A stretch of DNA of 64,000 bases, taken from the NCBI RefSeq assembly GCF_055900595.2, contig NZ_CM148325.1; one strand, given 5' to 3'. The notes beneath the pieces were generated by a model that made no database searches, was not told the DNA's origin, and saw only the letters and a program-made list of their open reading frames with translations. Positions 692-6,350 of the stretch are shown one piece after another (within the stretch, counting starts at the first letter, position 1; every line of letters starts with the position of its first letter). A program made the translations under genes and the position numbers.

Positions 692-2113
692 ATGATGAGC
701 AAAATAAACCAAACGGATCTCGATCGGTTGATTGAACTGGTCGGCGGGCGCGGCAACATTGCGACGGTGAGCCACTGTATTACTCGCCTGCGCTTTGTCC
801 TCAACCAACCGGCCAATGCCAGACCGAAAGAGATTGAGCAACTCCCCATGGTGAAAGGCTGTTTCACCAATGCCGGGCAATTTCAGGTGGTAATTGGCAC
901 CAACGTGGGTGATTACTATCAAGCGCTGATAGCGACGACCGGACAGGCGCAGGTTGATAAAGAGCAGGTGAAAAAAGCTGCCCGGCAGAATATGAAATGG
1001 CATGAGCAGTTGATCTCTCATTTCGCGGAGATCTTCTTCCCGCTGCTGCCCGCGTTGATTAGTGGTGGTTTGATCCTCGGTTTTCGCAATGTGATCGGTG
1101 ATTTGCCCATGAGCAACGGTCAAACGCTGGCGCAAATGTACCCTTCCCTGCAAACGATCTACGATTTTCTATGGTTGATCGGTGAAGCGATCTTCTTCTA
1201 CCTGCCGGTCGGAATTTGCTGGTCAGCGGTGAAAAAAATGGGCGGCACGCCGATCCTCGGTATCGTGCTTGGCGTGACGCTGGTTTCCCCACAGTTGATG
1301 AACGCTTATCTGCTCGGGCAGCAGCTACCGGAAGTATGGAACTTTGGCATGTTCAGCATCGCCAAAGTGGGCTATCAGGCACAGGTTATTCCGGCACTGT
1401 TAGCCGGGCTGGCGCTGGGCGTGATAGAAACTCGCCTTAAGCGTATCGTGCCGGATTATCTCTATCTGGTGGTGGTGCCGGTCTGTTCGCTGATCCTCGC
1501 GGTGTTCCTCGCCCATGCGCTGATTGGTCCGTTTGGTCGCATGATTGGCGATGGCGTTGCCTTTGCGGTGCGTCACCTGATGACCGGCAGCTTTGCCCCC
1601 ATTGGTGCGGCATTGTTTGGCTTCCTTTACGCACCGCTGGTGATCACCGGCGTACACCAGACCACGCTTGCTATAGATTTGCAGATGATTCAAAGCATGG
1701 GTGGCACGCCAGTGTGGCCGCTTATTGCGCTGTCGAATATCGCTCAGGGCTCCGCCGTGATAGGCATTATCATTTCCAGCCGCAAGAGCAATGAACGCGA
1801 GATCTCCGTACCTGCCGCTATCTCCGCCTGGCTTGGGGTCACTGAGCCTGCAATGTACGGCATCAACCTGAAATATCGCTTCCCGATGCTGTGCGCGATG
1901 ATTGGTTCTGGTCTGGCAGGATTGCTATGTGGTCTGAACGGCGTTATGGCGAATGGCATCGGCGTAGGCGGCCTGCCGGGAATTCTCTCTATTCAACCGA
2001 GCTACTGGCAAGTGTTTGTGCTGGCAATGGCTATCGCCATCATCATCCCGATTGTACTCACTTCGTTTATCTACCAGCGGAAATACCGCCTGGGTACGCT
2101 GGACATTGTTTAA
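692..2113 (+). CDS. treB: PTS trehalose-specific EIIBC component
   Basis: 473-aa ORF beginning MMSKINQTDLDRL, PTS EIIB cysteine motif followed by a multi-pass EIIC domain; located between treR and treC. Confidence 0.9.
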   Translation: MMSKINQTDLDRLIELVGGRGNIATVSHCITRLRFVLNQPANARPKEIEQLPMVKGCFTNAGQFQVVIGTNVGDYYQALIATTGQAQVDKEQVKKAARQNMKWHEQLISHFAEIFFPLLPALISGGLILGFRNVIGDLPMSNGQTLAQMYPSLQTIYDFLWLIGEAIFFYLPVGICWSAVKKMGGTPILGIVLGVTLVSPQLMNAYLLGQQLPEVWNFGMFSIAKVGYQAQVIPALLAGLALGVIETRLKRIVPDYLYLVVVPVCSLILAVFLAHALIGPFGRMIGDGVAFAVRHLMTGSFAPIGAALFGFLYAPLVITGVHQTTLAIDLQMIQSMGGTPVWPLIALSNIAQGSAVIGIIISSRKSNEREISVPAAISAWLGVTEPAMYGINLKYRFPMLCAMIGSGLAGLLCGLNGVMANGIGVGGLPGILSIQPSYWQVFVLAMAIAIIIPIVLTSFIYQRKYRLGTLDIV

Positions 2114-2162: not shown

Positions 2163-3818
2163 ATGACGAATCTTCCCCACTGGTGGCAAAACGGCGTTAT
2201 CTACCAGATTTATCCCAAGAGTTTTCAGGACACCACGGGCAGCGGTACCGGCGATTTACGTGGCGTTATCCAACGCCTGGACTATCTGCAAAAACTGGGC
2301 GTCGATGCTATCTGGTTGACCCCCTTTTATGTCTCTCCCCAGGTCGATAACGGATACGACGTAGCGAACTATACGGCGATAGATCCCACTTACGGTACGC
2401 TGGACGATTTTGACGAACTGGTGACGCAGGCGAAATCGCGCGGCATTCGTATCATTCTCGATATGGTGTTTAATCATACTTCTACCCAACATACCTGGTT
2501 TCGCGAGGCGCTGAGCAAAGAAAGCCCTTACCGTCAGTTTTATATCTGGCGCGATGGTGAACCAGAAACGCCACCGAATAACTGGCGTTCAAAATTTGGC
2601 GGTAGTGCGTGGCGCTGGCATGCGGAAAGCGAACAGTACTATTTGCATCTCTTTGCACCAGAACAGGCGGATCTCAACTGGGAGAATCCGACGGTACGCG
2701 CAGAACTGAAAAAAGTCTGTGAGTTCTGGGCCGATCGCGGGGTCGATGGGTTACGCCTGGATGTAGTGAATTTGATCTCTAAAGATCCGCGTTTTCCTAA
2801 TGACCTGGATGGCGACGGGCGTCGCTTCTACACCGACGGGCCACGAGCACACGAGTTTTTGCACGAGATGAACCGCGATGTGTTTACGCCTCGCGGTTTA
2901 ATGACCGTGGGTGAAATGTCCTCCACCAGCCTTGAGCATTGCCAGCGATACGCGGCACTAACAGGCAGTGAATTGTCGATGACCTTTAATTTTCATCACC
3001 TGAAGGTCGATTATCCCGGTGGTGAAAAATGGACGCTGGCTAAACCTGACTTTGTGGCGTTGAAAGCATTGTTCCGCCACTGGCAACAAGGAATGCACAA
3101 CGTGGCATGGAATGCCTTGTTCTGGTGTAACCACGATCAGCCGCGCATTGTTTCTCGTTTTGGTGATGAAGGGGACTACCGCGAACCTGCGGCAAAAATG
3201 CTGGCGATGGTGCTGCATGGCATGCAGGGAACGCCATATATCTATCAGGGCGAAGAGATTGGCATGACTAACCCACATTTCACGCGCATTACTGACTATC
3301 GCGACGTGGAGAGCCTCAATATGTTTGCCGAACTGCGCAACGATGGGCGTGACGCCGAGGAGTTATTGGCAATCCTCGCCAGTAAATCCCGTGACAATAG
3401 TCGCACGCCAATGCAATGGAGCAACGGCGATAATGCCGGGTTTACAACGGGTGAACCGTGGATTGGCCTGGGCGATAACTATCAAGAAATCAACGTAGAA
3501 GCCGCGCTGGCCGATGAGTCCTCGGTGTTTTACACCTACCAAAAGTTAATCGCACTGCGTAAGCAAGAAGCCGTCCTGACATGGGGCAATTACCAGGATC
3601 TGCTGCCAGACAGCCCTGTATTGTGGTGCTATCGCCGTGAATGGAAGGGGCAAACCTTGCTGGTCATTGCCAACCTTAGCCGTGAGATCCAACCCTGGCA
3701 GCCAGGGCAAATGCGCGGAAACTGGCAGCTTGTGATGCATAACTACGAAGAAGTCTCAGCACAACCCTGTGCCATGACTTTACGGCCTTTTGAGGCCGTC
3801 TGGTGGTTACAGAAGTAA
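2163..3818 (+). CDS. treC: Trehalose-6-phosphate hydrolase (GH13 alpha-glucosidase family)
   Basis: ORF-track start 2016 trimmed to the ATG at 2163 (MTNLPHWWQNGVIYQIYP), giving the recalled 551 aa; GH13 motifs present. Confidence 0.9.
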   Translation: MTNLPHWWQNGVIYQIYPKSFQDTTGSGTGDLRGVIQRLDYLQKLGVDAIWLTPFYVSPQVDNGYDVANYTAIDPTYGTLDDFDELVTQAKSRGIRIILDMVFNHTSTQHTWFREALSKESPYRQFYIWRDGEPETPPNNWRSKFGGSAWRWHAESEQYYLHLFAPEQADLNWENPTVRAELKKVCEFWADRGVDGLRLDVVNLISKDPRFPNDLDGDGRRFYTDGPRAHEFLHEMNRDVFTPRGLMTVGEMSSTSLEHCQRYAALTGSELSMTFNFHHLKVDYPGGEKWTLAKPDFVALKALFRHWQQGMHNVAWNALFWCNHDQPRIVSRFGDEGDYREPAAKMLAMVLHGMQGTPYIYQGEEIGMTNPHFTRITDYRDVESLNMFAELRNDGRDAEELLAILASKSRDNSRTPMQWSNGDNAGFTTGEPWIGLGDNYQEINVEAALADESSVFYTYQKLIALRKQEAVLTWGNYQDLLPDSPVLWCYRREWKGQTLLVIANLSREIQPWQPGQMRGNWQLVMHNYEEVSAQPCAMTLRPFEAVWWLQK

Positions 3819-3828
3819 GTATCCGCTA

Positions 3829-3860
3829 AGCCCCGGTAATACTGGTCATTCCGGGGTTTT
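3829..3860 (+). terminator. Rho-independent terminator downstream of treC
   Basis: GC stem AGCCCCGG ... CCGGGGTTTT followed by a T-run. Confidence 0.5.
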
Positions 3861-3879
3861 GCCTTTCAGTATGTTGTTT

Positions 3880-4070
3880 TTGTTGATTTTATAATCAAAA
3901 AATTCATTAAAAAATTTACATAACGCTGTAGCGCCCGTCATCCGTACGCTCTGCTTTTTACTTTGAGCTACATCAAAAAAAGTTCAAACATCCTTGATGC
4001 AAAGCACTATATATAGACTTTAAAATGCGTCCCGACCCAATATGTTGTATTAATCGACTATAATTGCTAC
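3880..4070 (+). promoter_or_regulatory. nrdDG promoter region with AT-rich palindromes; candidate NrdR boxes
   Basis: AT-rich tract upstream of nrdD containing palindromic CACTATATATAG (about 4005-4016), a CATCAA/TTGATG inverted pair (3971-3999) and TTGAT-N6-ATCAA (3883-3898); motif assignment is tentative. Confidence 0.35.
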
Positions 4071-4211
4071 TACAGCTCCCCACGAAAAAGGTGCGGCGTT
4101 GTGGATAAGCGGATGGCGATTGCGGAAAGCACCGGAAAACGAAACGAAAAAACCGGAAAACGCCTTTCCCAATTTCTGTGGATAACCTGTTCTTAAAAAT
4201 ATGGAGCGATC

Positions 4212-6350
4212 ATGACACCGCATGTGATGAAACGAGACGGCTGCAAAGTGCCGTTTAAATCAGAGCGCATCAAAGAAGCGATTCTGCGTGCAGCTAAAGC
4301 AGCGGAAGTCGATGATGCAGATTATTGCGCCACTGTTGCCGCGGTTGTCAGCGAGCAGATGCAGGGCCGCAGCCAGGTGGATATCAACGAGATCCAGACC
4401 GCCGTTGAAAACCAGCTGATGTCGGGTCCATACAAACAACTGGCTCGTGCTTACATCGAGTACCGTCACGATCGCGACATTGAACGTGAAAAACGCGGTC
4501 GCCTGAATCAGGAGATCCGTGGTCTGGTCGAGCAGACCAACGCCTCGTTGCTCAACGAAAACGCCAACAAAGACAGCAAGGTGATTCCAACCCAGCGCGA
4601 CCTGCTGGCCGGGATTGTGGCTAAACACTATGCACGTCAGCACCTGCTGCCGCGTGACGTGGTGCAGGCGCATGAGCGTGGCGATATTCACTATCACGAT
4701 CTCGATTACTCGCCGTTCTTCCCGATGTTCAACTGCATGTTGATCGACCTGAAAGGTATGCTGACCCAGGGCTTTAAGATGGGTAACGCCGAGATTGAAC
4801 CACCGAAGTCGATCTCTACGGCAACCGCGGTAACAGCGCAGATTATTGCTCAGGTCGCCAGTCATATTTATGGCGGCACCACCATTAACCGTATCGATGA
4901 AGTGCTGGCACCGTTTGTCACCGCCAGCTACAACAAACACCGCAAGACCGCAGAAGAGTGGAACATCCCGGACGCCGAAGGTTACGCTAACTCTCGTACC
5001 ATCAAAGAGTGCTACGATGCCTTCCAGTCGCTGGAGTACGAAGTAAACACCCTGCACACCGCCAACGGTCAAACACCGTTTGTGACCTTTGGTTTTGGTC
5101 TGGGCACCAGCTGGGAGTCTCGCCTGATTCAGGAGTCTATCCTGCGTAACCGTATCGCTGGCCTGGGTAAAAACCGCAAAACTGCGGTGTTCCCGAAACT
5201 GGTGTTTGCGATTCGCGATGGCCTGAACCATAAAAAAGGCGATCCGAACTACGACATCAAACAGCTGGCGCTGGAGTGCGCAAGCAAGCGCATGTATCCG
5301 GATATCCTGAACTACGATCAGGTAGTGAAAGTCACCGGTTCGTTTAAAACCCCGATGGGCTGCCGTAGCTTCCTCGGCGTGTGGGAAAATGAAAACGGCG
5401 AACAGATCCACGATGGTCGTAACAACCTCGGCGTGATCAGCCTGAACCTACCGCGCATTGCGCTGGAAGCGAAAGGCGATGAGGCCACCTTCTGGAAGCT
5501 GCTGGATGAACGTCTGGTGCTGGCACGTAAGGCGCTGATGACCCGTATCGCTCGTCTCGAAGGCGTTAAAGCGCGCGTGGCCCCGATCCTCTATATGGAA
5601 GGTGCTTGTGGCGTTCGTCTGAATGCTGACGACGACGTTTCTGAAATCTTCAAAAACGGTCGTGCGTCTATTTCGCTGGGTTACATCGGCATCCACGAAA
5701 CCATTAACGCGCTGTTTGGCGGCGAGCATGTGTATGATAACGAGCAGCTGCGCGCGAAAGGTATCGCCATTGTTGAACGTCTGCGTCAGGCGGTGGATCA
5801 GTGGAAAGAAGAAACGGGTTACGGTTTTAGCCTTTACAGCACGCCAAGTGAAAACCTGTGCGACCGCTTCTGCCGTCTCGATACCGCGGAGTTTGGCGTG
5901 GTGCCGGGCGTGACTGATAAAGGTTACTACACCAACAGTTTCCACCTCGATGTGGAGAAGAAGGTGAACCCGTACGACAAGATCGACTTTGAAGCGCCTT
6001 ACCCGCCGCTGGCGAACGGTGGCTTCATTTGCTACGGCGAATATCCAAACATTCAGCACAACCTGAAGGCGCTGGAAGATGTCTGGGATTACAGCTATCA
6101 GCATGTACCGTATTACGGCACCAATACGCCGATTGATGAGTGTTACGAGTGTGGTTTTACCGGTGAGTTTGAGTGCACCAGTAAAGGCTTCACCTGCCCG
6201 AAATGTGGTAACCATGACGCCTCCCGTGTGTCGGTGACTCGCCGCGTGTGCGGATATTTAGGTAGCCCGGATGCGCGTCCGTTTAACGCTGGTAAGCAGG
6301 AAGAAGTTAAGCGCCGCGTTAAACATTTGGGAAATGGGCAGATCGGTTAA
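4212..6350 (+). CDS. nrdD: Anaerobic ribonucleoside-triphosphate reductase (class III, glycyl radical)
   Basis: 712-aa ORF with an N-terminal ATP-cone, C-terminal cysteine zinc ribbon and a glycyl-radical motif (RVCGYLG). Confidence 0.9.
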   Translation: MTPHVMKRDGCKVPFKSERIKEAILRAAKAAEVDDADYCATVAAVVSEQMQGRSQVDINEIQTAVENQLMSGPYKQLARAYIEYRHDRDIEREKRGRLNQEIRGLVEQTNASLLNENANKDSKVIPTQRDLLAGIVAKHYARQHLLPRDVVQAHERGDIHYHDLDYSPFFPMFNCMLIDLKGMLTQGFKMGNAEIEPPKSISTATAVTAQIIAQVASHIYGGTTINRIDEVLAPFVTASYNKHRKTAEEWNIPDAEGYANSRTIKECYDAFQSLEYEVNTLHTANGQTPFVTFGFGLGTSWESRLIQESILRNRIAGLGKNRKTAVFPKLVFAIRDGLNHKKGDPNYDIKQLALECASKRMYPDILNYDQVVKVTGSFKTPMGCRSFLGVWENENGEQIHDGRNNLGVISLNLPRIALEAKGDEATFWKLLDERLVLARKALMTRIARLEGVKARVAPILYMEGACGVRLNADDDVSEIFKNGRASISLGYIGIHETINALFGGEHVYDNEQLRAKGIAIVERLRQAVDQWKEETGYGFSLYSTPSENLCDRFCRLDTAEFGVVPGVTDKGYYTNSFHLDVEKKVNPYDKIDFEAPYPPLANGGFICYGEYPNIQHNLKALEDVWDYSYQHVPYYGTNTPIDECYECGFTGEFECTSKGFTCPKCGNHDASRVSVTRRVCGYLGSPDARPFNAGKQEEVKRRVKHLGNGQIG

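Follow-up and report, generated by a model that had tools for sequence, protein, structure and literature searches.

The stretch of DNA analysed here, hereafter referred to as the window, comprises 64,000 nucleotides of contig NZ_CM148325.1 (RefSeq assembly GCF_055900595.2). In its list of open reading frames, treB and treC are followed on the same strand by nrdD and nrdG, which encode the anaerobic class III ribonucleotide reductase and its activase. NrdD, assigned from the ORF list and from the RefSeq annotation under the match, is an anaerobic ribonucleoside-triphosphate reductase of 712 amino acids, homologues of which carry the ATP-cone, NRDD and glycyl-radical Pfam domains. According to the ORF list, the stop codon of treC ends at position 3818 and the ATG of nrdD begins at 4212, so that the spacer between the two genes, 3819-4211, has 393 bp. 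Of 5426 complete E. coli genomes, 5425 gave a match to a 701-bp query around this spacer, in each case located between genes annotated as treC and nrdD, and the query is 100% identical to the sequence of a canine E. coli isolate. The interval 3880-4211 has a G+C content of 39%, compared with 51% for the window, and the segment 3863-3930 has only 21%. We conclude, with a probability of about 0.93 that includes the assignment of the individual sites, that the spacer is the promoter and leader of the E. coli nrdDG operon and that this control region integrates three signals, which enter through FNR, NrdR and DnaA. The substance of this conclusion is already published for the promoter of strain K-12. 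The features are collected in Table 1.

Table 1 Genes and control elements at the nrdDG locus. Positions are those of the window; a dot stands for a site given without strand; identity is the mean identity to the window base over 63 Enterobacteriaceae species.
Feature	Sequence	Position	Strand	Relative to +1	Identity	Remarks
treB		692-2113	+			ORF list
treC		ends 3818	+			ORF list
treC terminator-like hairpin	CCCCGG...CCGGGG, then TTTTG	3825-3862	+			inverted repeat I2; upstream of the interval
AT-rich dyad	TTGATTTTATAATCAA	3883-3898	.	centre about -143.5		TTGAT-N6-ATCAA
Partly conserved blocks	AAAATTTACAT (3909-3920), GCGCCCGTCATCCGTAC (3931-3947)	3909-3947	.		0.68-0.70
FNR site 2 (distal, strong)	TTGAGCTACATCAA	3963-3976	.	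centre -64.5	0.78	centre 3969.5; also shown as TTGAGctacATCAA
FNR site 1 (proximal, weak)	TTGATGCAAAGCAC	3994-4007	.	centre -33.5	0.92	centre 4000.5
NrdR box 1	GCACTATATATAGACT	4004-4019	.	-30 to -15	0.81	between the -35 and -10 positions
-10 hexamer	TAAAAT	4021-4026	+	-13 to -8	0.95	from published site positions and sequence
Transcription start (inferred)		4034	+	+1		G in the present strain, A in K-12
Leader		4034-4211	+		0.40-0.50 outside sites	178 nt
NrdR box 2	ACCCAATATGTTGTAT	4035-4050	.	+2 to +17	0.87
Distal DnaA box	TTATCCACA	4100-4108	-	+67 to +75	1.00	perfect; single box
Direct repeat	GAAAGCACCGGAAAACG / GAAAAAACCGGAAAACG	4125-4162	+		0.36	repeat family D2
Proximal double DnaA box		4177-4196	-			two boxes with a 2-bp gap
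Perfect box of the pair	TTATCCACA	4177-4185	-	+144 to +152	0.99
Weak box of the pair	TTAAGAACA	4188-4196	-		0.70
Shine-Dalgarno sequence	GGAG	4204-4207	+			from sequence; start codon ATG 4212-4214
nrdD		4212-6350	+			712 aa
nrdG		downstream of nrdD	+			ORF list

Binding sites for FNR were sought over the 64-kb window with a matrix made from 62 ChIP-seq-positive sites (Myers et al. 2013, Table S6), nrdD being excluded. FNR site 2, with 17.9 bits, is the best match of the whole window, where 0.025 matches of this quality are expected at random. FNR site 1 has 10.7 bits and rank 12, with 4.4 such matches expected per 64 kb; it is sub-threshold and not significant when taken alone. The two sites are exactly 31 bp apart and each has the canonical N4 spacing between its half-sites. 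Pairs spaced by 31 bp, of either the FNR or the NrdR kind, were found in none of 40 random sequences, and for both regulators searches with the consensus agree with the matrix scans. Single FNR-like matches with up to two mismatches number 52 in the window, as compared with 32 expected. A CRP-like match in the region is FNR site 2 itself. The initial annotation had described TTGAT/ATCAA half-sites whose spacing does not fit FNR. The half-sites are present, TTGAT at 3883 and 3994 and ATCAA at 3894 and 3972. However, the unusual spacing applies only to the pair of perfect pentamers at 3883-3898, for which the FNR matrix scores are negative, while the two sites that do match, TTGAG-N4-ATCAA at 3963-3976 and TTGAT-N4-AGCAC at 3994-4007, are canonical.

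For K-12, both binding of FNR at this promoter and an anaerobic induction that depends on FNR have been described. Myers et al. reported an FNR ChIP-seq peak at nrdD with the predicted site TTGATGTAGCTCAA (ln p of -14.45, against a threshold of -10.75), and in a K-12 supplementary expression table the ratio for nrdG and nrdD is 0.27-0.36. A 54-mer used for anoxic SAXS, which corresponds to positions 3960-4013 of the window with one mismatch located outside the motifs, carries the two sites, with published centres at -33.5 and -64.5; gel shifts and SAXS show that FNR occupies both of them in vitro. The site at -64.5 was reported to be necessary and sufficient for activation of nrdDG, while that at -33.5, which has a lower affinity, raises expression only when the -64.5 site is occupied. 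The nrdDG promoter resembles canonical class I and class II FNR promoters in the TTGAT-N4-ATCAA motif, in its dependence on an activator and in its weak -35. In contrast, its site centres, which are taken from the literature and refer to a start site known from a secondary citation, match neither standard class, since these have their sites at -61.5/-71.5 or at -41.5; in the data of Myers et al., 19 of 23 FNR-activated promoters have a site at -41.5 +/- 4. How polymerase is activated from -64.5 and -33.5 has been called 'a remaining mystery'.

The transcription start was placed from these published positions. The centres of the two FNR sites in the window, combined with -64.5 and -33.5, respectively, both give +1 at 4034, and we infer the start there from the secondary citation and the geometry. 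The primary mapping of the nrdDG transcription start is reportedly that of Boston and Atlung in 2003. In the supplements of Kim et al. 2012, which hold start-site data, nrdD is not mentioned. A simple sigma-70 scan found no full promoter and no usable -35, and the lack of a call is explained by the lack of a -35, as expected for an activator-dependent promoter. A perfect TATAAT lies in the leader at 4060-4065 without a matching -35. As an alternative -10 it was rejected: there is no -35 at 16-18 bp, and the FNR sites would fall at -71.5 and -102.5, in disagreement with the published positions. A terminator scan returned a single minus-strand terminator-like match across the start codon, which is meaningless. 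In the absence of oxygen, dimeric [4Fe-4S] FNR binds strongly to site 2 and weakly to site 1 and activates a promoter that has a good -10 and no usable -35.

The matrix for NrdR was built from four E. coli boxes only, namely those of nrdAB and nrdHIEF, with probe sequences taken from PMC12176259, and nrdDG was left out. NrdR boxes 1 and 2 score 14.2 and 13.6 bits and rank first and second in the 64 kb, where 0.05 and 0.13 matches, respectively, are expected at random. The consensus, a partly palindromic 16-mer with the core CwAtATaTwG, has two matches in the 64 kb, and these are the same two boxes. They are separated by a canonical spacer of 15 bp (4020-4034), which lies inside the required 14-17 bp, or about 31-32 bp from centre to centre, and spacers of 14-17 bp define the class bound by all tested NrdR proteins. 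The 57-mer of K-12 used in the binding experiments corresponds to window positions 3999-4055 with one mismatch, located in the spacer, so that the boxes are identical (PMC12176259); on this DNA, NrdR has a KD of about 150-160 nM in the presence of ATP-dATP or ADP-dATP, the value with ATP-dATP being about 160 nM (PMC12176259).

The palindromes that had drawn attention to the region coincide with these boxes. The 12-mer CACTATATATAG, initially described as a palindrome resembling an NrdR box, occurs once in the window, at 4005-4016, within box 1. It is not itself a palindrome, as the opposite strand reads CTATATATAGTG; perfect symmetry is limited to the 10-mer CTATATATAG inside it, at 4007-4016. 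The second AT-rich palindromic segment, noticed about 30 bp downstream, was recovered as well: it is CAATATGTTG, contained in box 2, an imperfect dyad whose centre is 31 bp from that of the first. Perfect palindromes of 10 bp number 58 in the window, with about 62 expected, and because they are not above chance, symmetry alone proves nothing. Unlike the palindromy, the agreement with the NrdR and FNR matrices does exceed chance. The proposal that FNR and NrdR control the operon is thus supported, with significant matches to both matrices in the interval: the NrdR boxes hold the first two ranks, and FNR site 2 the first rank, in 64 kb.

In the nrdD promoter the NrdR boxes overlap the region bound by RNA polymerase. 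FNR site 1 covers the -35 position and shares 4 bp (4004-4007) with the start of NrdR box 1. Together the two boxes extend over the stretch between -35 and -10, the start point of transcription and the half of FNR site 1 that lies downstream. NrdR bound there would keep RNA polymerase from the promoter and would compete with FNR for site 1. This proposal draws on the geometry and on data from Salmonella, in which mutants of the NrdR boxes derepress an nrdDG fusion and in which box 1 likewise overlaps an FNR site.

Two perfect DnaA boxes, a third published input into this promoter, lie inside the interval and had been overlooked in the initial annotation. The sequence TGTGGATAA, the reverse complement of the DnaA consensus TTATCCACA, is found at both sites, and these are the only two perfect DnaA boxes of the 64-kb window, both in the nrdD leader; the entire K-12 genome has 32. 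On the minus strand the proximal site reads TTAAGAACA-gg-TTATCCACA, which is the arrangement of a 'double DnaA box', with the second box 2-3 bp away. For the distal box no recognisable partner was seen when the sequence was read by eye, the adjacent positions giving at most 4 of 9 matches. The double box reported under the DnaA ChIP-seq peak of nrdD, which is 62-fold over control, is tTTAAGAACAggTTATCCACAg (PMC11317965), and it is identical in the present strain. If the numbers of PMC11317965 follow NC_000913.3, the coordinate of the peak centre precedes the annotated start of nrdD by 79 bp and maps to about position 4133 of the window, between the two boxes.

Conservation was assessed on the nrdD loci of 80 Enterobacterales species obtained from a scan of a genome collection; the alignment rows, from which the identities in Table 1 were calculated, represent 63 Enterobacteriaceae species. 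The best 120 matches in a search for NrdD homologues all belong to Enterobacterales. The alignment shows a strongly conserved core that extends from FNR site 2 through NrdR box 2. Below this core the leader is variable, and fixed within it are only the two 9-mers for DnaA, the sequence flanking the proximal 9-mer and the ribosome-binding site; the segment ATGGAGnGATCATG, which comprises the Shine-Dalgarno and start-codon region, is kept across genera. The DnaA boxes are the most constrained elements of the region, above the FNR and NrdR sites. Of the 80 species, 69 have two or more perfect DnaA boxes in the 250 bp that precede nrdD, while the rest of the same 80 loci, 442 kb in total, contains 2 perfect boxes. 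Both boxes have the orientation seen in the window in 58 species, the distal one is inverted in 11 (in Edwardsiella, Hafnia, Limnobaculum, Yersinia, Dickeya and Serratia) and the boxes are absent from 7 of the 80. At FNR site 1, the other genera usually have TTGATGCAAATCAC. The direct repeat in the leader was considered as a functional element and rejected. It is confined to Escherichia, in the rows of the window, K-12 and E. albertii, and is probably not functional.

Comparison with K-12 MG1655 shows the same locus, and in the alignment no base differs within either FNR site, either NrdR box, the -10 hexamer, the two DnaA boxes or the ribosome-binding site. Over positions 3905-4230 there are three differences, at 3924, 3983 and 4034, none of which is inside a known site. 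The differences are concentrated in 3820-3901, the 80 bp proximal to the terminator, and create in the window a perfect TTGAT-N6-ATCAA that is missing from K-12. The nrdDG promoter of Salmonella Typhimurium agrees with that of the window in how its FNR sites, NrdR boxes and DnaA boxes are ordered and spaced. Its FNR sites 2 and 1 are TTGTTCTACGTCAA and TTGATGCAAATCAC, respectively, the distal site being weaker and the proximal one stronger than in E. coli. The nrdAB operon of E. coli is likewise a ribonucleotide reductase operon controlled by two NrdR boxes with 15 bp between them and by a DnaA double box, and both operons have DnaA ChIP-seq peaks, although the signal is larger at nrdD (62-fold) than at nrdA (14-fold) (PMC11317965). 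In contrast to nrdDG, nrdAB is an aerobic operon that does not respond to FNR, and its DnaA boxes are upstream of the promoter, whereas those of nrdDG are in the transcribed leader.

The stretch upstream of FNR site 2 is less uniform. By megablast, 3819-3925 was matched in only 1093 of the 5426 E. coli genomes, while the promoter core and leader were matched in 5425, with the leader at least 99% identical in 4918. The K-12 counterpart of the AT-rich dyad is TTGATTTTTCAACCAG, which has no second half-site. Other genera have a partly symmetric dyad at the same position, most commonly TTGAATAATTAATCAG, or for example TCGATTTTTTAATCGA, and the dyad position and the two blocks downstream of it show 0.61-0.70 identity across genera, even where treC is not the neighbouring gene. 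The blocks at 3909-3947 gave no promoter-like site in the scan, and searches with the consensus sequences of NarL (heptamer and 7-2-7), ArcA, CRP and Fur returned no more matches than the density of the window would predict.

One of the nucleoid-associated proteins H-NS, Fis and IHF, or a regulator that has not been described, could bind 3863-3947 and modulate the FNR-dependent promoter. The low G+C content of 3863-3930 would suit such a protein, the conservation of 3863-3947 exceeds that of the leader outside its sites, and H-NS is listed in a recent paper among the factors that bind the nrdDG promoter. The consensus sequences of Fis and of IHF each match at the dyad with one mismatch. However, these matches are loose and low in information, there being 73-74 of them in the window, Myers et al. 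saw no enrichment of Fis, H-NS or IHF over the nrdD FNR site, and the dyad differs between E. coli strains. We regard binding of this kind as possible, though rather doubtful.

Much less probable is that the dyad contributes to anaerobic control by binding FNR, as a third site of non-canonical type, or some other protein of the CRP/FNR family. Its two pentamers, TTGAT and ATCAA, are perfect and inverted, and many genera, including species without treC upstream, keep a partly symmetric AT-rich dyad at this place. Against this, the FNR matrix gives -14 and -7.7 here and is strongly negative at every register, the commonest form elsewhere is not FNR-like, and the stretch varies widely among E. 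coli. K-12, the strain in which control by FNR was worked out, lacks the second half-site, and the published work explains activation with two FNR sites only. The dyad TTGAT-N6-ATCAA is outside the FNR input and is a strain-variable decoy.

An equally slim chance was given to the reading that the leader works through a fold of its RNA, for instance as a riboswitch, an attenuator or a thermosensor, with the conserved elements as RNA motifs. A leader of 178 nt is long, and the sequence around 4054-4120 can be drawn as a stem-loop. The folding energy of the leader, however, does not stand out from that of shuffled sequences (z = -1.28), of which 28 in 200 fold as well as the leader does. An Rfam scan of 3700-4400, with E values up to 10, returned noise, the best matches reaching 14-18 bits where the gathering thresholds are 35-112. 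Moreover, conservation in the leader is limited to the two 9-mers of the DnaA consensus and the ribosome-binding site. The inversion of the distal box in 11 distant species, which keeps a DNA site but not an RNA sequence, and the free variation of the sequence between the boxes speak for sites of a protein at the level of DNA and against RNA motifs.

Finally, single FNR-like matches and perfect 10-bp palindromes are common enough in the window for the motifs to be suspected as chance features of an AT-rich spacer, a view rendered almost untenable by matrix ranks of 1, 1 and 2 in 64 kb (0.025-0.13 expected) with exact 31-bp spacings, by conservation across 63-80 species and by published binding data on identical sequences.

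The reading that remains is that of a promoter and leader with sites for FNR, NrdR and DnaA. Judging from the geometry, DnaA bound at +67 and +144 would act on the elongating polymerase, and its most likely effect would be repression by a roadblock; there is a precedent for roadblocks by DnaA bound inside transcribed regions. This idea fits proteomic data that show higher levels of NrdD and NrdG both in cells with very little DnaA and in a DARS2 deletion. However, the two proteins are likewise increased after induction of the hyperactive DnaAcos, which a simple repressor model does not predict; this effect could arise through NrdR and dNTP depletion. We therefore give repression by a roadblock about even odds. 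The DnaA boxes might also do more than tune one operon, either as a roadblock dependent on DnaA-ATP that ties anaerobic dNTP synthesis to the initiation of replication or as a titration site about 70 kb from datA, and, separately, the 3909-3947 blocks and the AT-rich dyad might be the site of an undescribed regulator; we consider these proposals speculative and improbable.

For the annotation of the genome these results matter little, as this is a textbook-level promoter in which every known site is unchanged in the copy in the window; the gain is the exact coordinates of all sites for the present strain. For the order as a whole, the near-invariance of the DnaA boxes in the leader across Enterobacterales supports the claim, made from ChIP-seq, that nrdDG belongs to the DnaA regulon.

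The nrdD leader contains two perfect DnaA boxes, one distal and one proximal to the nrdD start codon, both of which are near-invariant across the Enterobacteriaceae. This pair of perfect boxes was absent from the initial annotation. Binding of DnaA at the nrdD leader has been published by ChIP-seq in 2024 (PMC11317965), and these boxes may have a regulatory effect, which we regard as putative. In Yersinia, Hafnia, Edwardsiella, Dickeya and Serratia, the orientation of the distal box is flipped.

The leader also includes a perfect TATAAT hexamer, which in other genera is replaced by TATTAT or TACAAT. The hexamer could serve as an alternative or minor promoter element, or its occurrence may be incidental; no -35 element was found 16-18 bp from it. 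K-12 and E. albertii carry an A at the inferred transcription start, base 4034, which is the final position of the NrdR spacer; this strain and most Enterobacteriaceae have a G there.

Upstream of the transcription start, a pair of blocks has a conservation of about 0.7 among the 63 Enterobacteriaceae species. The quarter of the treC-nrdD spacer next to the terminator, segment 3819-3925, is highly variable within E. coli: megablast matched it in just 1093 of 5426 genomes, with at least 99% identity in only 23. The remainder of the spacer is almost invariant within the species.

Features of the nrdD upstream region and leader, and other FNR-matrix matches in the window
Feature	Position	Location
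Block pair AAAATTTACAT and GCGCCCGTCATCCGTAC	3909-3947	~90-125 bp 5' of transcription start
TATAAT, perfect hexamer	4060-4065 (+27 to +32)	inside nrdD leader
DnaA box, perfect, distal	4100-4108	nrdD leader
DnaA box, perfect, proximal	within 4177-4196	nrdD leader
FNR-matrix match TTGATTAAAATTAA, 15.2 bits	49657-49670	~60 bp 5' of small ORF starting 49729
FNR-matrix match GTGATTTATATCAA, 17.4 bits	49844-49857	within small ORF starting 49729

The second- and third-ranked FNR-matrix matches in the window lie in or near this small ORF, the product of which begins MFSRVLALLAV and has a signal-peptide-like N-terminus.

Outside the Enterobacteriaceae, the nrdD upstream region of Edwardsiella, Hafnia, Yersinia, Dickeya, Serratia and relatives (loci L069-L081) is unlike the Enterobacteriaceae layout, having at most one FNR-like site, about 50 bp 5' of a strong NrdR box. 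The plus-strand DnaA box of Dickeya immediately adjoins a second NrdR box. The leader is about 100 bp shorter in Escherichia sp. ESNIH1 and Pseudescherichia vulneris (L059 and L061), where the FNR sites are located at -144 and -113 relative to the nrdD start codon. A perfect DnaA box is absent from both of these loci and from each of L063-L065; these loci are natural variants that could reveal the purpose of the DnaA boxes.
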